Of a DNA stretch of 64,000 nucleotides, positions 43,357 through 52,659 are shown in pieces (the first letter of the stretch is position 1; every line of letters starts with the position of its first letter). A model generated the notes under the pieces. It worked only from the letters and a program-made list of their open reading frames with translations. It did no database searches and was not told where the DNA came from. The position numbers and the translations under genes were made by a program. Source of the stretch: Candidatus Latescibacterota bacterium. GTDB taxonomy: Bacteria; Latescibacterota; UBA2968; GCA-2709665. The stretch lies in NCBI GenBank assembly GCA_965222075.1, contig OZ244937.1, forward strand, positions 1,952,001 to 2,016,000. The letters are read 5' to 3'.

Positions 43357-44223
43357 CTAATGTCCTTCATGCGCTTCCATCCCATGGTGTATGGCACTGG
43401 ATTCAACGTAATACAGTGCATAGGCGAGACCGACTCCCACGAGGAGGGATACGATGAGCTTGCCGCGGTCGTGGCTGTGGAAATGTATCTCCGGCAGCAG
43501 ATCGCTCAAGGCAATGCACAGGAACGCGCCAGCCGCGAAGGCCAGCACATAGCCGACCACCTCCCCTACTTCCCACGGGTCGAGCAATCCCACACCCCAG
43601 AAACTCGCCAGTGCCACCAAAGGGCACAGCATGGCAAATCCGACATTGGCCACCGTCCGGGCACGCCGGCTGTGACCGGCGGACTTCATCATGCCGATAA
43701 TGGAGTACGCATCGAGCGGCTTGTGCAGCAGAATGGCGAGGAATACCCCCAGTCCCGCCAACGCGCCTTTGCCGTCGTGCGGCGGACCCATCTGCATGCT
43801 GGTGCCCAGAGCGACCCCTTCGGTCACGGTGTGCACCCCCAGGCCGAGGGCAACGCCCAGCAAACTCCGCGAATGTACACCGGAACCACCGTGGCCGTGT
43901 TGATCGTACAGATCGCTTGCCTCACTGCTGAAGTCATGCTGATGAAAGTGAAAGATACGCAGCAAAAAAATCATCAGGATCATGCCGAACACCATCCATC
44001 CCACGGCTTTTTTTACAATGTCAGGCCCGGAAATGCGCTCGAGGCTGTGGGGTAGAAGATGATACATAGCGATGCCAAGGATGAAACCTGCCACAAGACT
44101 CATCAAGATCTGTGTACGCACGTGCGTCATGGTACCCAAAGCCGCCAGTTTTCCGCCAAGCAAGGAAGCGGCAAAGATAGCGGCTGAGTATCCCGACAAA
44201 ATCAGTAGAGAATCTGAATCCAC
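43357..44223 (-). CDS. ZIP family metal transporter
   Basis: HLLPHS, His-rich loop HFHQHD..HGH, GVHTVTEGVALG, LHKPLD, SDLLPE. Confidence 0.9.
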   Translation of the reverse strand: MDSDSLLILSGYSAAIFAASLLGGKLAALGTMTHVRTQILMSLVAGFILGIAMYHLLPHSLERISGPDIVKKAVGWMVFGMILMIFLLRIFHFHQHDFSSEASDLYDQHGHGGSGVHSRSLLGVALGLGVHTVTEGVALGTSMQMGPPHDGKGALAGLGVFLAILLHKPLDAYSIIGMMKSAGHSRRARTVANVGFAMLCPLVALASFWGVGLLDPWEVGEVVGYVLAFAAGAFLCIALSDLLPEIHFHSHDRGKLIVSLLVGVGLAYALYYVESSAIHHGMEAHEGH

Positions 44224-44356
44224 GATAGCTATAACCGGAAATTATCTGAGAAGCTGTCTTACCCTATCGCCGCGGCACCGGGTCGAAATTCTGTCGGTGG
44301 CGCATTGACTCCATATCGGATTGCACTTTTTTTTGTACATTATGAACTTCTGAAGG

Positions 44357-44744
44357 ATGGACGCGTATATTCAACGCGAACGGTTCCGGGTAGCCAATGG
44401 CACGATGGGGATACTTCCAGTGAACATAACAGACGATGCTTCTGGCATACTTTGCCGGCTCGCGCCAGATGACATCGAAGCCGAGCGGCGCGGCCATATC
44501 CGACTTGAACTGTTTGCCGTCGAAACAGCGCGGCATCCGCCTACACTTGTCCGTCTAATGCGCCACCCGCCAGGCGGAGCAGGAGCTGACCACTTCTGTC
44601 CAATAGAGACCGCTGTGTTCGGGCGTGGGGTTCTTTGAGGTCAGCCCCGACGAACGCCAGGTACTCTTCGGCACATCTGGAGGTAGCGTGCATGTGCTGA
44701 CTTTAGCGACGGATTGGAAAGGTCCAGAAGGTGCAGTCGTCTGA
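44357..44744 (+). pseudogene. Degraded gene fragment with a WD40-like C-terminus
   Basis: A frame change near 44620 gives GVGFFEVSPDERQVLFGTSGGSVHVLTL; no intact long ORF. Confidence 0.3.
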
Positions 44745-45405
44745 CAAAAAAAAGGGCAAGATGGATGTTATGGTGGCCCCAGTCTGGCGCAGAGCAGGCG
44801 AGTTCACCTACCGTCAAGCGTCTGTCCTCTGAGGATAGACCTGCAGAGGATCATCCTGTGGAACGGTGGGCAAGAGATTGTGCTGAGTAAAGACTGGACC
44901 AGCGAGTTCATCAGACAGCTCGTCGATGATGAGAAATAAAGGCGTCGACGTATCACATACCGCCCGCAGAACCCACACACCACCCTCAAATTGTCACGCT
45001 GCTTGCGCAGAAAAGCAAAGGCTCCCAGGCGGCGCGCCAATCCGCCTGCGGCGGAACATGCCCCTTCGCGAGCGGCTGAAAGTCAAAGAAGCTGAAATCC
45101 TGGTCACGCAAGAGGGGACCACCCAACCCTGAATCCGTGTTGAATTCCCTGTTAAAAGTGTTTATCTTATGCAGGTAGATCGTAAATCGTGAAAACGAGC
45201 CGCGCTTCACGAACCAGGAACCACACAAACGTGGAAAGTGATAAAATGGTCGGAACGTAAACATCCCTACAATTTAAACTTCGCCTATCATCCGTCTCCT
45301 CGCAACACGATTTATTCGCTTGTCATCTTACCTCCACTTTGGTTAATTTAGGGACTTATTAAATCGTCATTTTCAGATCTACAGAATAATGAAGGAGATC
45401 CTCAC

Positions 45406-46179
45406 GTGAGCCTGCGCCGCTGTCCCCTGTTCCTGCTGGTCTTCCTCCTTACAGCCGGTTGTGGCAACGAAGCGCCTACCGACACCGAGCCCTCTGCCAA
45501 TGCGGACCTCATCCAAACAGAACCGATCCGCTTTATCACCAGCGACGGCTTTACCATCAGCGGCACCTGGTTTAGCTCCAACAGGCAGCAGGGCGCCTGG
45601 CCCGTTGTGATCCTGCTTCACATGTTCGGCGGCAACCATGCCCAGTGGACCCCCTACGTTCCGGAACTGGTCGAGGGGGGCTACCTTGTCCTCGCCTTCG
45701 ATTTGCGCGGCCATGGTCAAAGCACAGACCGGAACGGCTCGTTTGCGCCACGCACCCTCTTCTCAAGAGACGACCTTGACAGCATGCCCTTAGATGTAAA
45801 GGCCGCCATCGACTGGATCAAAACCCGGTCCGAGGCAGACGCTCAGCGCATCGGCCTCATCGGGGTCGACATTGGCGCCAACATCGCTTACATCAGCTCC
45901 GGCACCCTCTCCGGGATCAAAACGGCCGTCTCCATCTCCCCCGACAACCAGCAGAGTGTGCTGACGGGTGAAGACATCCCCGATTTTCAACCCCGCTCGG
46001 TCCTCTTTTTGGCCGCCTTCGGCGATGGATATGCCTTCACATCGGCCGAGGCCATGGCCGAACAGACGCAGAACCCCAAACGTGTCAAAGGGTATCAGGG
46101 CACGGCCCACGGCTTCTTTCTGCTCAACGATGCGGATGCACGATCCGAAGTGTTCAAGTGGCTCAAGGAAAACCTTTAA
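45406..46179 (+). CDS. Alpha/beta hydrolase-fold lipoprotein
   Basis: Lipobox LTAGC, ILLHMFGG, DLRGHGQS, GVDIG at the nucleophile elbow, AHG. Confidence 0.8.
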   Translation: MSLRRCPLFLLVFLLTAGCGNEAPTDTEPSANADLIQTEPIRFITSDGFTISGTWFSSNRQQGAWPVVILLHMFGGNHAQWTPYVPELVEGGYLVLAFDLRGHGQSTDRNGSFAPRTLFSRDDLDSMPLDVKAAIDWIKTRSEADAQRIGLIGVDIGANIAYISSGTLSGIKTAVSISPDNQQSVLTGEDIPDFQPRSVLFLAAFGDGYAFTSAEAMAEQTQNPKRVKGYQGTAHGFFLLNDADARSEVFKWLKENL

Positions 46180-46202
46180 ACCGTCCAGGGGAGGAGACAA
46201 GC

Positions 46203-47681
46203 ATGAAAACAGCGAAGCGGTTTTTTCGGATACTGATCTTTCTCGTTACCGGTTTCCTCGTCTGGGAGTCTGCCTATGATGAGGCCTGGGCACAGCGTGG
46301 GGGTGGGAGGGGAAGGCGTGGCCGGGGGGGCATGGACCTGAGCAGCTCCCAGCGCCGCGGTCCCTTTTCGAACCTGCCCTGGGGAGCTCAGGAACTTCTC
46401 GGACAGTACCAGGAGGCGTTCCGACGCCTGCCGCCGCAGCTTCGGGTCTACATTCTGACCGCTCTGAGGGGTTGGGACAGCTTCTTCCCGCCCGAAAAGA
46501 AACAGTTCGAAGTCTTTTTACGGAAGGCCAAAGGCGCCTCTCCCGAAGAACTCCGGGACGCATTTCATGGCACCCTGCCCCCTCTCTCCCGAAGAAACGT
46601 TCAGGACTTGCCCCCTTCGGACGAAGGGGACGTTCAGCCTGCCCCCCCAAGGGGCAGGTGGGGCAGGAGGGGCATGCGTGGAGCCGCCGGTCAGACAGGA
46701 CCCAGGCGGCGCGGCCCCCGGATCTCCCTTACCCCCGCCCAGTTCGCAAAAATCGATGCGGCGTTCGACCGCTATGTCTTTGCCGACATGGGAATCGGCC
46801 CCGGCCTGATCGTCATCGCCTTCAGTGCAGCAGCTACCCCAGCGGCCAATTCGGTCCTCCAGGACAGCCTCATCTCCCAGGGCACCCTTTTGAAAAACGT
46901 CGCGTTCACCGATCCGCCCAAAACCTGGATTGCAGCCCTCCTCACCGGATGTGGGGATCCCATCAAAGGGAAAAACCTGCGTTATCCCTCCCTCTTCGAG
47001 TACCACAATCGGGACCTGGACGATAAAACCCATACCAGAACCCTGGCCCTCTACCCGGGCAAAGACGCTCCCCCTGCTGTGAGCAAAACCAGGGGATTTG
47101 GGAAAAAATACGGCCCCCTCACGGTCCGGGCTTCCGATTTTGAGCCTGCCGTCAGTGTCATCAACAGTGAAATGGAGGCAGCCCGGCAAAAAGGCCGTTC
47201 GGAAAAGTATATCGAGAAAATGGTCAAACCCAAATTCACCCCAAAAACGCTGGGGCTCGACAAAACCCTGAGCGATGAGGCCCTGATACGCCTCGTCACC
47301 AGGACCCTCCTGGCCTCCGACGAAAACCTGAATTTAGACAACACCTTCCTTAGAGACCTCGCCTTCAGCTGCCTCCTCAAGGCCCAGCCGGACCTGTTCT
47401 TTGTTCACCTGAAAGACGACGGCAGCCCGGAAAACCAGCGCTTCCTGCTAACGGCCCAGGAAGTACACCGATCGCACTACAGATACAAAGACCGAACAAC
47501 CCTGGCCGTTTTGGATCAAAGCCGGGGCCAGGTCCTCATCATAGGCCCGGGAATTCCGGCAGGCCGCGAAATTTCCGAGCCTCACACCCTGCAGGACCTT
47601 TCGGTCACCCTCTCCCGGAGGGCCAACATCCGGGCCGCCCAGGCCCAGGGCGTCCCCCTCGAAGACCTGGTGGCGCGGTAG
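46203..47681 (+). CDS. Hypothetical exported protein with RG-rich N-terminus and possible degenerate alkaline-phosphatase-like C-terminus
   Basis: GGAG RBS, signal-like N-terminus, RGGGRGRRGRGG, C-terminal LIIGPGIPAGREISEPHTLQDLSVTL. Confidence 0.6.
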   Translation: MKTAKRFFRILIFLVTGFLVWESAYDEAWAQRGGGRGRRGRGGMDLSSSQRRGPFSNLPWGAQELLGQYQEAFRRLPPQLRVYILTALRGWDSFFPPEKKQFEVFLRKAKGASPEELRDAFHGTLPPLSRRNVQDLPPSDEGDVQPAPPRGRWGRRGMRGAAGQTGPRRRGPRISLTPAQFAKIDAAFDRYVFADMGIGPGLIVIAFSAAATPAANSVLQDSLISQGTLLKNVAFTDPPKTWIAALLTGCGDPIKGKNLRYPSLFEYHNRDLDDKTHTRTLALYPGKDAPPAVSKTRGFGKKYGPLTVRASDFEPAVSVINSEMEAARQKGRSEKYIEKMVKPKFTPKTLGLDKTLSDEALIRLVTRTLLASDENLNLDNTFLRDLAFSCLLKAQPDLFFVHLKDDGSPENQRFLLTAQEVHRSHYRYKDRTTLAVLDQSRGQVLIIGPGIPAGREISEPHTLQDLSVTLSRRANIRAAQAQGVPLEDLVAR

Positions 47682-47711
47682 GGTCACGGCGCACCGTGAC
47701 CTCGCCCCTAC
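47678..47711. repeat. GTAG-type REP-like element between convergent genes
   Basis: GTAG-GGTCACGG-CGCA-CCGTGACC-TCGCC-CCTAC; both genes' TAG stops lie within its ends. Confidence 0.55.
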
Positions 47712-48760
47712 CGCGTCTTCACGGCCCGCCCCCGCCGCACCGACTCGACCTCTTTAAAGCAGAGCCGCAGGGCATCGGCTGCCCGCTGTCCGGACAGTTC
47801 CGGCGCCTCTATCCCCCTGGAAACCGTGTCCACGGCCGCCTGGATCTCGCGCGTAAAAGCAACCACCGGATCGCCCGCCCCCAGCCTGGGTTTGCGGACC
47901 TTCCCGTCATCGGTCAACAGGGTCAGCGGGCTCGACAGTACAGGCTTCCCACCCAGGGTGGAAAACTCGTACACCACCGTGGCCCGCTCCAGATAGACCT
48001 CAAACCCGTGTGTAAATTCACGCCCGGGCTGAGAGATCGCCCCGGACGCGCAGGTGAGACACAGATCGGGGTGGTTCTTATAGCGATAGGTCGTACACAG
48101 GTACTCTGCGTGCTGCCCTTTCACCAGCCGGCCGGCCGATAACACCTGATCCGGAACCCCGCAAAGCAGAAGGATGTAGTGCGTATCGTGAATGTGCAAA
48201 TCGATGCCCGGCCCTCCGCTGCGCGCCATATTGCCAAACTCGGCAGACCAGTCCGGTTTGGAAATAATCCGCCTGAAATGTCCGCCTAAAAGCTTCCCGT
48301 ACGTTCCCTCCTCAACGACCTTCCGCAGATAGGCGAACTCCGGGAAAAAGGGGAGCACCTGGGCCACCATCAGGCATCGGCCCGCCCGCTGTGCTTCCTG
48401 CAGCATCCGGTTGGCATCTTTCATAGTCAGCGCAATCGGCTTCTCCAAAAGGACGTGTTTGCCTGCCCGAAGCGCCTGAACCGTCACCTCCGTGTGGAGA
48501 CCCGTCGGCAGACAGATATCGATCAGATCGATCTCCGGATCGGCCAGCAGATCCGCGATTCGCCGATACGTCCGGATCCCGGAAAGGTCCTCTATCCCCC
48601 CCGGGTCGCCAAAATTGCCCCGCACCCCCCGCCAGTCCCCCTCCAACTTCTTGGGATTCCGCGTACAAATCGCAGCAACCTTCCCCCGCTTCACCTTCCG
48701 GGCGCCCCTGTAATGGGTCATCCCCATAAACCCCAGACCGACAATGCCGATGCGAATCAT
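47708..48760 (-). CDS. Gfo/Idh/MocA family oxidoreductase
   Basis: GIVGLGFMG, AGKHVLLEKPIA, DLHIHD. Confidence 0.9.
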   Translation of the reverse strand: MIRIGIVGLGFMGMTHYRGARKVKRGKVAAICTRNPKKLEGDWRGVRGNFGDPGGIEDLSGIRTYRRIADLLADPEIDLIDICLPTGLHTEVTVQALRAGKHVLLEKPIALTMKDANRMLQEAQRAGRCLMVAQVLPFFPEFAYLRKVVEEGTYGKLLGGHFRRIISKPDWSAEFGNMARSGGPGIDLHIHDTHYILLLCGVPDQVLSAGRLVKGQHAEYLCTTYRYKNHPDLCLTCASGAISQPGREFTHGFEVYLERATVVYEFSTLGGKPVLSSPLTLLTDDGKVRKPRLGAGDPVVAFTREIQAAVDTVSRGIEAPELSGQRAADALRLCFKEVESVRRGRAVKTR

Positions 48761-49097
48761 AAGTACATGTCCTCCACAAAACCGAATGGTCAAAAACGAC
48801 AAATTTCCACCAATATAGGGATAGAAAAAGAGAACAGCAAGGGAATTGACAGCCGAAATACCCTTCCGCTGGGAGTGACATCTCTTATGTTAGCATGAGA
48901 TTGTGACCTTTTTAACCCGGTCTCTCTTTCCCGTTTGGCCTTTTCAAGATTCTCTATTATATTGTAAAAACGAATTATCTTTTATGAAAAAGTTTCGGCA
49001 CGATTTTCGCTAACCTCTGAATACGGGCCATGCGCTTATCTCAATGCCTCTGTACAACCGAACAGAATTTTAACAAACCTTACAATAAGGAGACAGG

Positions 49098-49640
49098 ATG
49101 AAACGCTGTACGCCATGGATCACGGGGATGCTAACGGCCCTGCTGCTCTGGACAGGTCCAACAGGGGCAGCCACCGCTCCCGACTTCAACCTGTGGGACA
49201 CAGGAGGCAAACGAGTCAACCTGAAGGCCCTTCTCAAAAAAGGCCCTGTCCTCCTGGACTTTTGGGCCACCTGGTGCAAACCCTGTCTGAAGGCCATGCC
49301 CAAACTGGAAGAAATCCACAACAAATACAAAGACCGGGGGCTGACCGTCCTGGGCGTCAACGAAGACGGCCCTCGCAGCCAGACCAAAGTGAAGCCCTTC
49401 CTCAGGGCGCGCAAGATTTCATTTCCATCCGTCTTCGACCCCGACGGCGGCGCCATGCGCCGGATGCAGGTCGGGCTGCTGCCCGTAACCTTTCTGATTG
49501 CACCGGATGGCGAAATCGTGCTTCGGCAGGCCGGATATAACCCGGACCATGAAAAGCCCCTGATAGACGCCATTGAATCCTTGCTTCCAGGGACCGACGC
49601 CGGCACAGAGCCCACCGGAGATGCCCGTGCGGAAAAGTAG
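49098..49640 (+). CDS. Exported TlpA-like thiol-disulfide oxidoreductase
   Basis: Signal peptide, APDFNL, LDFWATWCKPC. Confidence 0.9.
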   Translation: MKRCTPWITGMLTALLLWTGPTGAATAPDFNLWDTGGKRVNLKALLKKGPVLLDFWATWCKPCLKAMPKLEEIHNKYKDRGLTVLGVNEDGPRSQTKVKPFLRARKISFPSVFDPDGGAMRRMQVGLLPVTFLIAPDGEIVLRQAGYNPDHEKPLIDAIESLLPGTDAGTEPTGDARAEK

Positions 49641-51135
49641 CCTGGCGGTTCTGGTCCTGCTTCTGTCCTCCGCTCCGGCAGGCGCCCAGATCACCGTTTC
49701 AAGCCTGACGGAAATGCAGCGAGGGCGTATCCCCGGAACCGATTCCACGGCCCTTTCCACGCTCTATGAGCAATTCAACGTCGATTACGCAAACAACGAC
49801 CTGCAGGCGGGGCTGCGGGCCGAGGTATTCAACGCCTGGGGAACCGACCGGGAGATGGTCCATCTCTCCCAGAAATACATCCGCTGGACGCATGGATCAA
49901 CCTATCTGGTCGCCGGGAACTACTATGCCATCCTGGGCCGGGGACTGACCCTCCGCGCATTTGAACTGCCCGGAGTGGTCCTGGAAAACCAGGTCTTCCG
50001 GCGCCGGTACACACCCTCGCGCGACATGGAGGGCGGCCTGGCCTCCTGGACCGGCGACCGCGCCGAAATCAAGGCCCTGATCGGGCGCCAGGCCAAAAAC
50101 GACATCCCCCCCGGCGTCCCGAACCTCGACCGCCGGCAGGACTGGGTTGCAGGAGGCGAAGTCTCCCTTCGGCCCGCCCCCCCCCTGAAAGCAGGCGCAA
50201 CCCTCGTCCACCTCCGTCCCAGGGACGCAGACAAAAGCCAGGCCTGGTCGGGCCTTGCCGAGGTTGACTTCACCTCCCTACTCGGACTCGGTGAAACCTA
50301 CGGCAGCTTCTACGGCGAGTACGCCAAACGCGCAGGCGGCCCGGAACAGGGGCACGGGCTTTATCTCTCGGGAAACGCCGGAGGGTCCGGACTCGGCATC
50401 AGCCTCGAATACAAAAATTACGACAACTTCATCCTGGAGGTCAACGACCCGCCCTCCCTGGTCCGGGAACACACGTCCGTCATGCTCAACCGCTCCACCC
50501 ACGTCCTCCTGCCCCTCACCGAGCGGGGGTACCAGATCGAGGCCACCTACACGCTGCCCACTCTGGCCACCCTTACAGCCAACCTCAGCTATGCGCGCAA
50601 CAACCTCGCCAAAGACCGGATAACAGTCTTCAAGGAGCGCTACCTCGGGGTCGACTTTGAAAAATTTCTGCCGAGCTTTTCAGCAACCCTATTCTACGAC
50701 TGGGGCAAAGACGAGTTGGAAGGGATCTCGAAGCACCGCACGGGAGGCCTCTTGCTGGAAGGCGCGGCCTGGCCCAACCATACCCTGGGGCTCGACTTCC
50801 AGGTTCAGCGCGCCACCCGTCCCTTTGCGGACCCGCCGTCGTTTACGGACATCTACACCGCCCTGTCCTGGCAGCATCCGCTTGGGGTCAGCGTCGCCCT
50901 GATCGTGGACCGGACGTCGGACCCTTTGGAAATCGACGATCCGGCGACCCTGACCCAAATCGAGACCGACGCGCGCACCTGGTGGGCGGCCACCCTCAGC
51001 GCACGGTTCGCCGGACGGTATGAGGCCCTCCTCTTCGCGGGCCGGCGGCGTGGCGGAACGGCCTGCACTTCCGGGACCTGCTACCAGGTCCTGCCCTTTA
51101 AAGGTCTGGAAATACGGCTCACCACCCATTTCTGA
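49621..51135 (+). CDS. Outer-membrane beta-barrel protein, DUF6029-like
   Basis: Signal peptide, AGNYYAILGRGLTLRAFE, EYKNYDNF..PPSL, C-terminal GGTACTSGTC..FKGLEIRLTTHF with terminal Phe. Confidence 0.7.
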   Translation: MPVRKSSLAVLVLLLSSAPAGAQITVSSLTEMQRGRIPGTDSTALSTLYEQFNVDYANNDLQAGLRAEVFNAWGTDREMVHLSQKYIRWTHGSTYLVAGNYYAILGRGLTLRAFELPGVVLENQVFRRRYTPSRDMEGGLASWTGDRAEIKALIGRQAKNDIPPGVPNLDRRQDWVAGGEVSLRPAPPLKAGATLVHLRPRDADKSQAWSGLAEVDFTSLLGLGETYGSFYGEYAKRAGGPEQGHGLYLSGNAGGSGLGISLEYKNYDNFILEVNDPPSLVREHTSVMLNRSTHVLLPLTERGYQIEATYTLPTLATLTANLSYARNNLAKDRITVFKERYLGVDFEKFLPSFSATLFYDWGKDELEGISKHRTGGLLLEGAAWPNHTLGLDFQVQRATRPFADPPSFTDIYTALSWQHPLGVSVALIVDRTSDPLEIDDPATLTQIETDARTWWAATLSARFAGRYEALLFAGRRRGGTACTSGTCYQVLPFKGLEIRLTTHF

Positions 51136-51175
51136 CGTGGAAACCCACCACCAACAACGGAAAGGAGAGTAGACA

Positions 51176-52510
51176 ATGTATAGCGTACGAAGATGTCTTT
51201 TGAGCGCCATGCTCTTATGCTTCGCCACTGCCGGCAGCCTGGAGGCCGCCGATGTGGGCGATTCGGTGCCCAACTTTTCACTGCGGGACCTCAAGGGACA
51301 GACGCACACCCAGGCAACCTACCGGGGGAAAGTCCTCGTCATCTACTTTCTGGGCTATGCCTGATCGGTCTGCTACAGGACGGGTCCGTCCGTAGAGAAA
51401 GAGATATGGCAGCGCTTCAAAGACAACAACATCCAGGTGCTGGGTCTGGACGTGTGGAACGGTAGCCAGGCCCAGCTTGCGAACTTTGCGAACATCACCG
51501 GCGTCACCTTTCCCCTGTTGCTGAGGGCCGCGACCGGAACCAACTTCGGCGTCAGCTCCTCCGGAGCAATTGATGTGATGATGGTCGTCGATCAGGAGGG
51601 CATCGTCCGGCGCCGCAGCGGTGTCAGAACCTCTGCTGCTGTCTCGGCTGCGGTGAGCCTGGTCCGGGAACTGCTCACCCCCTCCGTGCCGGTTATCGGC
51701 ATCAACCCAACCTCCCTCAACTTTGGGCCGGAACTCCAACCGGGAGAGTCCAAAACCCTCTCGGTCGAAGTGCAAAACACCGGCACGGACACCCTCAATC
51801 TCACGAGCATCCAGTCAGACATACCCGAACTCACCGTAAGTGACTCCACGTTCTCCATTCTCCCGGACGAAAGCAGGGAGATCCAGGTCACCCTAACGCC
51901 CACGCAGGACGGCACCCTGTCGGGCATCCTCAGCCTCCTCAGCAACGACCCGCAACAGGGCACCCTCCGGATCGTGATCGAACCGATCACCGTCAAAACG
52001 CTTCCCTCCGAAATCGCCCTGGCCGCAGAACAGCTCGAATTCAACAACATCGAAGTGGGAAGCCGTGTCAACCGCACCCTCACGATCCGCAACGAAGGCC
52101 AGGGATCTTTAAAAATCACCGACGTAAAATCCGACCTGCCGGGTCTGTCGGTCTCCCAGAAGGCCTTCGAGGTGCCCCCGGGAGAATCACACGATCTGAC
52201 CGTTACCGTCACACCCACCGCAGAAGGCGCCTTTTCAGGCAGCCTGACAATCGTAAGCAATGACCCCGACCAGGGCATGATCGTCCTTACCCTGTCGGGA
52301 TCGGCGGTGATGTTCCAGCCCGAGGGCCGGGCCGACTTCAACGGGAGCGGGCGGATCGATTTCGCCGATTTTGTTATCTTCGCGCAGGGCTTTGGCCGGC
52401 AGGCCGGGCAGGCGGGCTTTGATGAACGGCTCGACCTGAACGACAACGGGAGGATCGACTTCCCTGACTTCGTCATCTTTGCCCGGTCCTTCGGCAGCAC
52501 TGTGAACTGA
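51176..52510 (+). CDS. Probable selenoprotein: exported AhpC/TSA-like redoxin (UxxC) + two Ig-like (choice-of-anchor D/ASH) domains + EF-hand/dockerin-like tail
   Basis: ORFs 51176-51364 and 51437-52510 are in the same frame, separated only by TGA at 51362. Read-through gives VLVIYFLGYA-U-SVC-YRTG..IQVLGLD; a SECIS-like hairpin follows. Confidence 0.85.
51369..51398 (+). promoter_or_regulatory. Putative bacterial SECIS element
   Basis: CTAC-A-GGACG-[GGTC]-CGTCC-GTAG stem-loop whose G-containing apical loop starts 19 nt after the UGA. Confidence 0.7.
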
Positions 52511-52535
52511 GCCTCTATCCTGCTCGTCTCATTTT

Positions 52536-52568
52536 CCGGCACGCCGGTCTGGTGTGCCGGTATTTTTT
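52536..52568 (+). terminator. Rho-independent terminator
   Basis: CCGGCACGCC-GGTCT-GGTGTGCCGG followed by TATTTTTT. Confidence 0.75.
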
Positions 52569-52659
52569 AGAAACCGAATACGGTCTCCTGGAGTCCCATT
52601 CAAGGAATTACAACCATCCGCCTGATCGCGAACAATCAACCTGAACAGAGCTCCGGAAG

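Follow-up and report, generated by a model that had tools for sequence, protein, structure and literature searches.

The locus examined here lies in a window of 64,000 nucleotides from a Candidatus Latescibacterota contig and raises the question of whether a TGA codon inside a thioredoxin-fold motif ends one gene or is read as selenocysteine (Sec) within a longer one, and what such a protein might do at the cell envelope. The frame that starts with the ATG at 51176 continued through the TGA at 51362-51364 and stayed open to a second TGA at 52508-52510, giving 444 residues, and the internal TGA (codon 63) fell at the first Cys position of the CxxC redox motif, within FLGYA-U-SVC, just as the initial annotation had described. 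Gene calling with table 11 cut the gene in two, as that annotation had anticipated for standard callers, into a 62-aa ORF (51176-51364) and a 357-aa ORF (51437-52510), and both fragments occur as called "proteins" in public collections, one as P0126 (62 aa, 100% identical) and the other as P0005 (356 aa). The gene is called gene 3 below, after its place behind two upstream genes (Table 1).

Table 1. Features of gene 3 and its surroundings, in window coordinates.
Feature	Position	Strand	Details and basis
Promoter-like site upstream of module	48935..48963	+	Consensus scan TTGGCC-17-TATATT, 9/12 matches; pattern match only
Gene 1, putative periplasmic TlpA/ResA-like thiol-disulfide oxidoreductase	49098..49640	+	180 aa, signal peptide, FWATWCKPC; Pfam AhpC-TSA 84.5 bits, Redoxin 77.3 bits
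Gene 2, predicted DUF6029 outer-membrane beta-barrel	49621..51135	+	Signal peptide, C-terminal Phe; Pfam PF19494 65 bits, cut-off 27
Shine-Dalgarno AGGAG	51163..51167	+	8 nt upstream of ATG, read directly
Gene 3, selenoprotein gene	51176..52510	+	444 codons + TGA stop; homologues with single in-frame TGA
Signal peptide, residues 1-24 (...SLEA/AD)	51176..51247	+	Basic n-region, hydrophobic helix 2-17 in model, A-x-A-like site; putative cleavage site
ResA/TlpA-like (AhpC/TSA Pfam) thioredoxin-fold domain, residues 27-167	51254..51676	+	Active site U63-S-V-C66; Pfam, PDB, Foldseek
UGA codon 63 read as selenocysteine	51362..51364	+	Inside FLGYA-U-SVC; TGA in aligned homologues, Cys in Cys forms
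SECIS-type hairpin CUAC-A-GGACG[GGUC]CGUCC-GUAG	51373..51395	+	23 nt; folding and comparison
Ig-like domain 1 (ASH/DUF1573/choice-of-anchor D), residues 174-273	51695..51994	+	Pfam, NF012200, model, Foldseek ASH/HYDIN/2qsv
Ig-like domain 2 (ASH/DUF1573/choice-of-anchor D), residues 280-378	52013..52309	+	Pfam ASH 82.2 bits
Dockerin-like tail, residues 386-440	52331..52495	+	Two Ca-loop + helix repeats (DFNGSGRIDFADF, DLNDNGRIDFPDF); Pfam below cut-offs; model helices
Intrinsic terminator ending module	52536..52570	+	11-pair stem, then TATTTTTT

The split gene calls favor a reading without Sec, in which translation really ends at the TGA (leaving two genes or a pseudogene), or the codon is a sequencing error or the site of some other recoding, and the same reading is favored by an Rfam cmscan of 51100-51700, which returned no match at E values up to 10. 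A stop at this codon, however, would sever the thioredoxin fold between strand 1 and the active-site helix. The Sec machinery on which the selenoprotein reading depends was found complete in this genome by profile searches, with selA at 566.7, selB at 368.6, selD at 374.5 (with an in-frame TGA of its own) and tRNA-Sec at 74.5 bits, all above curated cut-offs. TGA was the stop of 17 of the 35 long ORFs in the window, indicating that the genetic code is standard. Contigs from three other studies (X2, X4 and the RNA-library run X13) covered 51362-51364 without a variant, and record 4 of X13 covered 51129-51420 with 0 differences; the TGA is thus retained in three independent data sets. Coverage of the module by the RNA-library contigs has gaps (e.g. 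50452-51056 in X13); libraries of this type may contain some DNA, and contigs give no reading of level, strand or a single transcript. The RNA-library records carry the label sponge metagenome.

The codon was also conserved among relatives. Exactly one in-frame TGA was present in 19 of the 20 best loci (40 relatives), and all 44 aligned Sec forms carried it at G[YHFW]x-U-xx-C; one pattern match (L074, + strand) was left out as false. A search of the phylum gave 139 matches, spread over 89 of the 168 genomes, with a single TGA in 133 of the matches, none in five and a TAA in one; the TGA, with the frame open through it, was kept at 34-83% identity, which argues against a true stop. At least 133 genes in these 89 Latescibacterota genomes, together with 40 beside DUF6029 in metagenomes, would be selenoprotein genes truncated in public calls, and the selenoproteome of the phylum is therefore under-counted. 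We found Cys at the same site in other homologues, a check that the initial annotation had proposed: the Cys forms P0003 and P0004 have NCPVC there, CxxC occurred in 155 of the 161 domains covering the site among the best 150 of 5307 representative matches, and the redoxins adjoining DUF6029 in metagenomes (80 loci) comprised 40 U and 39 C forms. With 40 against 39, Sec and Cys appear to interchange freely at this one site. The two forms sometimes occur in tandem.

A G-loop stem-loop shortly downstream of the TGA had been claimed as well, and the hairpin begins 9 nt past the UGA. It folded with an energy of -11.5 kcal/mol (z -3.0; 2 of 200 shuffles folded equally well), its 81-nt context gave a z of -2.86, and its GGUC loop (51383-51386) occupies nt 22-25 counting from the U of UGA. 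Synonymous sites in this region were frozen, with entropies of 0.28, 0 and 0.49 bits at the third positions of codons +5, +6 and +7 compared to 1.5-1.8 bits elsewhere, and Gly +7 was encoded by GGT in 38 of 41 distinct rows. G23 and U24, which we take to be the SelB contacts, were located in the apical loop in 34 of 41 distinct homologues, whereas 200 synonymous resamplings averaged 6.5 and never exceeded 13, and the mean hairpin energy was -9.5 kcal/mol relative to -6.0 kcal/mol in the resamplings. The hairpin is conserved beyond expectation from the protein sequence alone. This per-sequence test replaced a count in a fixed single stem register, where 67% of cells were paired as against 42-55% when the register was slid, a weak signal; changes on both sides were seen in four of the eight hairpin pairs. 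When RNAalifold was applied to A1, the ungapped codon alignment, it returned no common hairpin, only a spurious 4-pair helix, because the stem register varies among subfamilies. The GGUC loop was absent in three of four Cys-form genes, and one Cys form retains the hairpin.

As a control within the same genome, an FdhA-like gene (NCSRAUHAP) carries GGUUGCC[GGUCU]GGCAGCC with GGUC at nt 22-25, and selD carries GGU at nt 24-26. In E. coli K-12 the fdhF SECIS likewise follows its UGA immediately on the 3' side and has GGUC at nt 22-25, although its stem sequence differs and the bulge is U17 in fdhF and A19 in gene 3. Since the loop is that of fdhF at the distance found in fdhF, native Sec insertion in E. 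coli may work without re-engineering. A scan of the genome for UxxC or CxxU with a GU-loop hairpin recovered gene 3 and selD; it marked 47 places, most of the others looking like GC-rich ORFs out of frame, and was excluded from the counting of selenoproteins. The agreement of the hairpin with the FdhA and fdhF signals, like the conserved codon, speaks against the readings without Sec, which we regard as extremely improbable as a group; within it, sequencing error, an altered genetic code and a pseudogene were rejected in view of the independent contigs, the use of TGA as a normal stop and the conserved open frame. None of the three conditions named in the initial annotation as refuting it (missing Sec machinery, a sequencing error, homologues lacking Cys at the site) was borne out. 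Gene 3 is almost certainly one gene read through by Sec.

We then considered what this gene encodes. The architecture proposed in the initial annotation, comprising a signal peptide, a redoxin domain, two Ig-like domains and a paired EF-hand/dockerin-like tail, was recovered, with the tail scoring below Pfam cut-offs. AhpC-TSA matched residues 27-146 with 56 bits (Pfam cut-off 26), along with Redoxin; ASH/HYDIN-Ig/DUF1573 matched twice, and the NCBIfam "choice-of-anchor D" model NF012200 reached 100.9 bits over two stretches (cut-off 45). The tail (residues 386-436 in the Pfam matches) scored 20.2 bits with Dockerin_1 (PF00404; cut-off 22.9), 24.5 bits with EF-hand_7 (cut-off 30) and 18.4 bits with the NCBIfam dockerin model NF041540 (cut-off 29), and the same dockerin-like tail is encoded at 46 other places in the genome. 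The AlphaFold2 model (pLDDT 87.2) showed a signal helix at residues 2-17, a thioredoxin fold at 28-167, beta-sandwiches at 174-273 and 280-378, and a tail of two loop-helix repeats with helices at 396-405 and 429-437.

By sequence, the nearest PDB entries were 2ls5 (3.2e-14) and ResA, with their CxxC aligned on the UxxC, and Foldseek gave TM scores of 0.79 for 2ls5 and 0.80-0.85 for ResA. The NCBIfam ResA model NF002854 scored 48.6 bits (cut-off 170) and NF047696 15.9 bits (cut-off 230). At the position of the ResA cis-proline, Glu (19), Asp (6) or His (2) was found among 27 sequences, so the protein is not a canonical TlpA/ResA. Its chemistry is likely to be thiol/selenol-disulfide exchange. 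Other chemistry has been weighed, namely a GPx- or Prx-like envelope peroxidase or a Sco-like protein that binds or reduces metals or metalloids. The Pfam family is that of AhpC/TSA, PrxQ/BCP models matched weakly at 26.2 and 22.1 bits (NCBIfam cut-offs 140-260), and Sec stands at the Thr of the Prx TxxC with C66 at the peroxidatic Cys position; yet the PxxxTxxC motif is broken at both of its other anchors, with L59 for Pro and U63 for Thr, and a canonical peroxiredoxin was rejected on this ground. For a Sco-like protein, the Asp, Glu or His at the cis-Pro position could serve as a third ligand, and Cys homologues match SCO1-SenC weakly, below cut-off, but Sco proteins use CxxxC and His rather than CxxC. 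The nearest solved relatives by both sequence and fold are CxxC thiol-disulfide oxidoreductases whose CxxC falls on the UxxC, and we consider either form of other chemistry distinctly improbable.

The initial annotation did not mention a partnership with the two upstream genes. Gene 2, which starts at ATG 49621 or TTG 49573, encodes a DUF6029 protein with an invariant C482/C487 pair in ACTSGTCY (alignment A3); homologues of DUF6029 also appear in records named for Gracilimonas and Rhodothermales. Its AlphaFold2 model was all-beta (pLDDT 88.5, pTM 0.83); VIA-align ranked the usher pores FimD (Z 20.2) and PapC (Z 19.0) best and gave MtrB a Z of 13.2, while Foldseek returned only generic large barrels at TM 0.3-0.53, and the usher ranking was not used to assign a function to DUF6029. 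The order of TlpA-like redoxin (WCKPC), DUF6029 barrel and Sec/Cys redoxin was conserved: the module was complete in 45 of the 49 metagenome loci with at least 700 nt of flank on both sides, and a gene 1 homologue adjoined DUF6029 in all 49, as well as in four genomes (G024, G027, G038 and G141). DUF6029 and the Sec-redoxin lay within about 2 kb of each other in 54 of the 84 genomes with both, by manual comparison of listings, and their proximity was shown directly in G038 and G141, which are additional to the 54. The association varied between lineages; the Sec-redoxin was beside DUF6029 in only 3 of 25 genomes of family f2 and in neither of the two loci read in genus g6, and in family f4 the pair is adjacent but lies on opposite strands. 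For these counts in the phylum DUF6029 was detected with alignment A3, as PF19494 at E 1e-20 was too strict (2 of 168 genomes, missing the present one). Judged by gene order, gene 3 appears to belong to a widespread, undescribed three-gene cell-envelope module. What is new is the Sec/Cys redoxin as the third gene of a conserved DUF6029 module, the PF00578 UxxC selenoprotein class being already known.

Complex prediction placed the redoxin on the barrel. The natural pair of genome G005, DUF6029 and the adjacent Cys paralogue P0003, scored 0.66, while the best of three controls scored 0.12. Three runs gave 0.66, 0.69 and 0.65, with at least 93% of contacts in agreement and a partner pLDDT of at least 81. 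Of 80 solved complexes, 58 came up to this mark, as did 2 of 110 mismatched pairs; these counts hold only roughly because our own alignments were used. The pair comes from another genus (the Cys paralogue is 40% and the barrel 58% identical to the window proteins), and the partner alignment had only 4 rows. The predicted interface joins residues flanking the CxxC (61, 63, 66-67 and 70-74) and residues 93-108 to conserved barrel loops, and includes the family-invariant P71, E74, G96 and Q100 (window numbering). The redoxin active site is thus predicted to sit on the barrel mouth, at the long-loop face of DUF6029, the membrane side of the interface having been assigned from strand order in the DSSP string rather than from coordinates. 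On balance we lean slightly towards a physical partnership between the gene 3 product and DUF6029, and with a conserved outer-membrane partner at hand the function of DUF6029 becomes directly testable.

On which side of the outer membrane the enzyme would work is less certain. The gene 3 product is probably exported; of the earlier description "exported, possibly surface-anchored", the first part was upheld by a typical signal peptide, and the second received indirect indications from T9SS tails, choice-of-anchor D, a cohesin protein and the predicted docking. In 5 of 10 Cys homologues tested, a Por_Secre_tail (the type IX secretion sorting tail) replaces the Ig/dockerin part. The genome has two cohesin matches above cut-off, one of them in a T9SS-tailed protein of 462 aa with Cohesin (29.3 bits) and Por_Secre_tail (30.9 bits). 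The gene 3 product bears marks of a surface protein, and we give a location on the outer face somewhat less than even odds. Alternatively, it may be a periplasmic selenoprotein, a TlpA/ResA-type reductant kept reduced by an inner-membrane pathway, with the adjacency to DUF6029 reflecting only a shared regulon (e.g. for maturing the barrel Cys pair) and the Ig domains and Ca-binding tail serving as periplasmic spacers. This would fit the ResA/TlpA-like PDB relatives, which are periplasmic or extracytoplasmic reductants, and the dockerin matches below cut-offs. By strand count on the model, moreover, the invariant Cys pair of DUF6029 lies at a short periplasmic turn, making the barrel a plausible substrate of periplasmic redoxins, and a dockerin-tailed protein has no evident route across the outer membrane. 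However, the T9SS sorting tails on Cys homologues of the same subfamily mark cargo that leaves the periplasm, the Ig domains are of the choice-of-anchor D type, on the barrel the predicted contacts fall only within the set of connections to which all its long loops belong, and the module already holds a second, canonical periplasmic TlpA-like gene. We regard the periplasmic alternative as improbable.

The reading we prefer is a single gene for an exported Sec redox enzyme, last in a DUF6029 envelope module and working as follows; we give this explanation as a whole a probability of roughly three in four. The UGA at codon 63 would be decoded by the SelA, SelB, SelD and tRNA-Sec of the cell, directed by the 23-nt hairpin, and Sec would replace the attacking N-terminal Cys of the CxxC (U63-S-V-C66). 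Its selenolate would attack a disulfide or another oxidized sulfur or selenium species, and C66 would resolve the resulting selenenyl-sulfide. The catalytic domain would sit as a cap over the DUF6029 barrel at its outer, long-loop mouth, the active site turned toward the pore, and we therefore propose that the enzyme acts on something passing through the barrel. Through its Ig stalk and dockerin-like tail, the enzyme may be tied to cohesin-bearing surface proteins. A more far-reaching idea is a "porin-redoxin" machine with a periplasmic TlpA-like inner component, DUF6029 and its invariant Cys pair spanning the outer membrane and the Sec/Cys redoxin capping the outer mouth. Such a machine would parallel porin-cytochrome conduits on the basis of thiols and selenols, linking redox reactions to the movement of a sulfur or selenium substrate, or of unfolded Cys-bearing cargo, across the outer membrane; in this full form it is speculative and rather unlikely. 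If true, it would provide the first function for DUF6029 and, so far as literature searches show, the first described bacterial cell-surface selenoenzyme, widespread in Latescibacterota and with T9SS-tailed Cys versions elsewhere. The interchange of Sec and Cys, the tandem copies and the hairpin-bearing Cys copy also offer a clean natural setting in which to ask when Sec is advantageous.

Among known selenoproteins, the closest class is that of the Prx-like thiol:disulfide oxidoreductases (PF00578, UxxC/UxxU), listed as "predicted with high confidence" in a table of a 2026 review (PMC13188914), included in the tables of PMC1794560 and predicted in Geobacter, Syntrophus, Desulfotalea and others. 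The gene 3 product shares with them the Pfam family, the UxxC and Sec at the first redox position, and would belong to this class by its definition (PF00578 plus UxxC) rather than by alignment to reference members. The passages of these two papers that we consulted are silent on any signal peptide, Ig-like domain or dockerin tail, and likewise on an outer-membrane partner and on Latescibacterota. In the text of PMC13188914 available to us, 0 occurrences each were counted for dockerin, signal peptide, secreted, periplasm and Latescibacter, and supplementary catalogues of the papers cited there may list relatives. Literature searches and the passages of PMC13188914 yielded no bacterial selenoprotein described as secreted or surface-displayed, and literature searches found no published link of Latescibacterota to Sec use.

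Among structures, ResA, TlpA and CcmG (PDB 1st9, 1su9 and 4nmu) have the same fold (TM 0.80-0.85, rmsd 2.3-3.2 A by Foldseek) and, as proposed for the gene 3 product, are exported; helix 1 begins with CxxC in these proteins, in alignment with the UxxC, and the Pro five residues past the second Cys is kept. The gene 3 product differs from them in having Sec for the attacking Cys, GY(A/N)UxxC instead of WCxxC, Glu, Asp or His at the cis-Pro position and a long C-terminal extension. The closest solved relative by sequence and by fold is 2LS5, a "putative protein disulfide isomerase" of Bacteroides thetaiotaomicron solved by NMR (rmsd 2.2 A, 26% identity), which, unlike the gene 3 product, is a Cys form (WCGVC) of a single domain with no known partner. 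Porin-cytochrome conduits (MtrAB-MtrC) and usher pores (FimD/PapC), large outer-membrane barrels that cooperate at their mouth with a redox or Ig-fold partner, serve as a working analogy only: DUF6029 shares no sequence relationship, haem or chaperone with them, and the likeness is one of large barrels in general. HBP35 of Porphyromonas gingivalis is a T9SS-anchored thioredoxin-like surface protein of Bacteroidota. Proteins of that kind rely on a C-terminal sorting module to expose their thioredoxin-fold passenger at the cell surface, and Cys homologues of the gene 3 subfamily carry the Por_Secre_tail, whereas the gene 3 product carries a dockerin-like tail and a Sec active site.

The initial annotation had placed an in-frame TGA inside FLGYA-U-SVC, followed by an open frame to give a product of 444 residues, and had stated that standard gene calling would split the gene. 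The sequence bore out both points, and table 11 yielded two ORFs of 62 and 357 aa. The domain plan proposed at the time stood for the signal helix, the redoxin and the two Ig-like domains, while the dockerin/EF-hand tail was seen only at scores under both Pfam cut-offs. In Pfam, residues 27-148 matched AhpC-TSA (56 bits against a cut-off of 26) as well as Redoxin, and two ASH/HYDIN-Ig/DUF1573 domains followed; the Ig pair was recognized by NCBIfam as 'choice-of-anchor D' (100.9 bits against a cut-off of 45), and its ResA match stayed below threshold. In the AlphaFold2 model (pLDDT 87.2, with 27 homologues as input), a signal helix precedes the thioredoxin fold at 28-167; beta-sandwiches occupy 174-273 and 280-378, and the tail forms two loop-helix repeats. 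Foldseek matched the first domain to 2LS5 (TM 0.79) and ResA (TM 0.80-0.85); for the Ig pair it returned ASH/HYDIN/CEP192 domains together with 2qsv. By sequence comparison, the UxxC aligned with the CxxC of 2LS5 and ResA.

Features of the redoxin module and of one further protein encoded elsewhere in the genome; positions are those of the window unless a locus or contig is named
Feature	Position	Strand	Remarks
TlpA/ResA-like redoxin	49098-49640	+	180 aa; signal peptide; FWATWCKPC
DUF6029 protein	49621-51135	+	
Selenoprotein gene	51176-52510	+	444 residues; ATG 51176, terminal stop TGA 52508-52510
Shine-Dalgarno AGGAG	8 nt upstream of ATG 51176	+	Read from sequence
In-frame TGA, codon 63	51362-51364	+	Within FLGYA-U-SVC; frame open beyond, to 52508-52510
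Hairpin CUAC-A-GGACG[GGUC]CGUCC-GUAG	51373-51395	+	Begins 9 nt after UGA
462-aa cohesin/T9SS protein	L097:1132-2517 = G000:C1 ~3832115-3833500	-	L097, extracted locus; G000, genome carrying the window

TGA was the commonest stop among the long ORFs of the window (17/35). A sequencing error at codon 63 was checked against independent data: contigs of run X2 (a second study), run X4 (a third study) and the RNA-library run X13 covered 51362-51364 with the same TGA and zero variants, and X13 record 4 matched 51129-51420 with zero differences. RNA-library contigs from X13 and X14 also overlapped the two upstream genes; such libraries may contain DNA, and these contigs are no proof of transcription. 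The RNA-library runs holding parts of the module (X13-X16) were labelled sponge metagenome. The Sec machinery, which the initial annotation had listed as a point to check, was found in the single 5.36-Mb contig of the genome, with selA (566.7 bits), selB (368.6), selD (374.5) and tRNA-Sec (74.5) all above cut-offs. SelD had its own in-frame TGA (SCGG-U-ASK). The selB, selD and tRNA-Sec genes cluster at G000:C1:3959749-3962940, outside the window. An FdhA-like molybdopterin oxidoreductase, also outside the window (G000:C1:1196911), had an in-frame TGA (NCSRA-U-HAP) and an fdhF-like hairpin and is, judged by its sequence, a further selenoprotein.

Homologues were found in 40/40 relatives searched, and among the best 20 loci 19 had one in-frame TGA and one had none. 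The 40 loci yielded 44 Sec forms and one Cys form, with one false pattern match left out, and the TGA fell at G[YHFW]x-U-xx-C in all 44 Sec forms. A redoxin-domain search of 168 phylum genomes gave 139 matches in 89 genomes (E 1e-15 or better): 133 with one TGA (one additionally with a TAG), 5 without and 1 with a TAA. A version in a Candidatus Latescibacterota MAG was 83% identical to the selenoprotein. Cys at the Sec site of homologues had been proposed as a further check, and it was found there: two Cys-form homologues, P0003 and P0004, read NCPVC, and 155 of the 161 domains covering the site in the best 150 of 5307 matches (1.84 billion representatives) had CxxC. Six matches among the same best 150 began only beyond the Sec site, as truncated Sec forms would, and one representative match was the 62-aa N-fragment of the selenoprotein gene itself. 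A search with residues 1-170 against a 5.8-billion-protein collection returned 10 proteins: two Cys forms of full length and eight fragments (319-360 aa) that lack the N-terminus.

The stem-loop that had been noted shortly after the UGA was confirmed as a hairpin of -11.5 kcal/mol (z -3.0; equalled by 2/200 shuffles), and its 81-nt context had a z of -2.86. In the gap-free codon alignment of the 44 Sec forms, C23, G24, G25 and C29 were invariant and G26, T27 and C28 were at least 90% conserved, which placed GGUC at nt 22-25 after the U of UGA. Third-position entropy fell to 0.28, 0 and 0.49 bits at codons +5, +6 and +7, where most other codons show 1.5-1.8; Gly +7 was GGT in 38/41 distinct rows, despite a preference of these genes for GGC as the Gly codon. 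RNAalifold found no common hairpin on the codon alignment, and pairing in a single fixed register was weak (67% of cells paired vs 42-55% when slid), because the stem register varies between subfamilies; even so, 4/8 pairs in that register had changes on both sides, matched by 7/500 shuffles. We therefore turn to folding per sequence (nt 12-42), in which 34/41 distinct sequences held G23/U24, presumably the SelB contacts, in an apical loop no longer than 7 nt on a stem of 4 or more pairs. Across 200 synonymous re-encodings of these peptides with family codon usage, a mean of 6.5 and a maximum of 13 sequences did so, and the mean folding energy was -6.0 kcal/mol vs -9.5 observed. The GGUC loop was absent in 3/4 Cys-form genes examined and kept in one that stands in tandem with a Sec paralogue. 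As controls, GGUC lay at nt 22-25 in the FdhA gene of the same genome (GGUUGCC[GGUCU]GGCAGCC) and in E. coli K-12 fdhF, and GGU lay at nt 24-26 in the selD gene of the genome carrying the window. No Rfam family matched the hairpin. The gene likewise terminates at a TGA, and GGUC recurs in the loop of the downstream terminator hairpin, at nt 39-42 after that stop (52508-52570); read-through would append 20 codons, ending at TAG. Since the spacing far exceeds that at codon 63, the second GGUC is probably a coincidence.

A promoter-like site precedes the module and a strong terminator closes it; tilS comes next. The genes upstream (43357-48802) are unrelated to the module: a ZIP zinc transporter (-), a dienelactone-hydrolase-like protein (+), a 507-aa ORF without Pfam match (46158-47681, +) and a GFO/IDH/MocA oxidoreductase (-). 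DUF6029 occurred in 101/168 phylum genomes, almost always as a single copy, its distribution over families matching that of the Sec-redoxin. Coordinates compared by hand put the two within ~2 kb in 54 of the 84 genomes having both (family f1, 20/20; f2, 3/25; f4, 31/39, on opposite strands). In G038 and G141, apparent exceptions, a more divergent Sec-redoxin adjoins the barrel; in G024 and G027 (genus g6) no Sec-redoxin was found adjoining it. A TlpA-like gene adjoins the barrel in 4/4 loci examined, those of these four genomes. Outside the searched genomes, DUF6029 homologues (30-62% identity) were found at 80 metagenome loci, some of them from related samples. Where at least 700 nt were available on both sides, the TlpA-like gene was present in 49/49 and the family redoxin as well in 45/49, usually in the order TlpA-like, barrel, redoxin, the genes lying some tens up to a few hundred bases apart. 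Of 79 redoxin domains of the family in the metagenome loci, 40 had U and 39 had C. Tandem Cys and Sec paralogues follow the barrel in L103 (G005:C97), L110/L111 and L105 (G079:C178); the Cys copy in L105 retains the GGUC hairpin, pointing to a recent change from Sec to Cys. Ten metagenome loci (L144-L149, L162, L164, L174, L178; ~32% identity) have two family redoxin domains downstream, ~510 nt apart and with GANCPHC twice, probably as one tandem-domain protein.

DUF6029, which has a signal peptide and ends in Phe, was confidently modelled (pLDDT 88.5, pTM 0.83) as a large all-beta barrel; the top structural matches were the usher pores FimD and PapC (Z 20.2 and 19.0), followed by 18- to 22-stranded porins and receptors. 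The DUF6029 alignment showed an invariant Cys pair (ACTSGTCY) near the C-terminus and a strongly conserved NDPPSLVREH...LLNRSTHVL loop, both unusual for an outer-membrane barrel. We predicted the complex of the barrel of a related genome (G005) with P0003, the Cys paralogue encoded directly after it. The score was 0.66 (runs 0.66, 0.69, 0.65), against 0.12 for the best of three controls; that level was reached by 58/80 solved complexes and 2/110 mismatched pairs, counts only roughly valid here given the custom alignments. The runs shared at least 93% of contacts, with partner pLDDT of at least 81. We know of no solved complex of this kind, so the predictor is unlikely to have scored well by memorizing one, and the prediction supports binding of the two proteins. 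Only the redoxin domain contacted the barrel (36-40, 61, 63, 66-67, 70-74, 93-108, 115-116, 130-131, 150-155), at positions that flank CxxC and include P71, E74, G96 and Q100 (window numbering), which vary little or not at all across the family. Contacts on the barrel were the connections after odd-numbered strands as read from the DSSP string, including all long loops and a conserved ...STDPxETDDPxT... loop. Connections of the long-loop kind usually form the outer face of outer-membrane barrels; the redoxin would thus contact the outer face, and by the same strand count the Cys pair would flank a turn of two residues on the other face, towards the periplasm. The only paper found to mention DUF6029, PMC9603273, proposes that it may function in polysaccharide secretion, on the basis of an HHpred similarity to Wzi, itself a barrel.

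A type IX secretion (T9SS) sorting domain ended 5/10 scanned Cys homologues, four being redoxin plus tail only (~260 aa), and two of the ten had the Ig-Ig-dockerin architecture of the selenoprotein. Because the Cys homologues have either tail, one passenger appears to be carried on different surface anchors, true to the 'choice-of-anchor' name. The genome carrying the window encodes the same dockerin-like tail in 46 further places and has two cohesin matches and four T9SS tails, all above cut-off. A 462-aa protein combining Cohesin (29.3 bits), a T9SS tail (30.9 bits) and a dockerin-like stretch could be a surface receptor or scaffold for the ~47 dockerin-tailed proteins.

Taken together, the selenoprotein is most likely the Sec version of an exported thiol-disulfide oxidoreductase that probably works with, and on top of, the DUF6029 barrel; the canonical periplasmic TlpA-like redoxin would act at the other side. 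Our literature searches found nothing relevant on selenoproteins in Latescibacter or on selenocysteine with Latescibacterota, nor anything joining selenoproteins with dockerin or type IX secretion, and a sponge-Latescibacterota genome paper had no selenoprotein, dockerin or type IX secretion terms. Dockerin, signal peptide, secreted, periplasm and Latescibacter were likewise absent from the accessible part of a 2026 selenoprotein review; supplementary catalogues of the papers that it cites may hold relatives. A canonical ResA/TlpA was rejected, since the cis-Pro position in 27 sequences holds Glu (19), Asp (6) or His (2) and the score falls short of the curated model's cut-off; so was a peroxiredoxin, whose PxxxTxxC signature is lacking. 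The protein fits the family listed as 'Prx-like thiol:disulfide oxidoreductase' (PF00578, UxxC) in the review tables. The PF00578 UxxC selenoprotein class is known; this variant, with its unexplored partner system, appears to be new.
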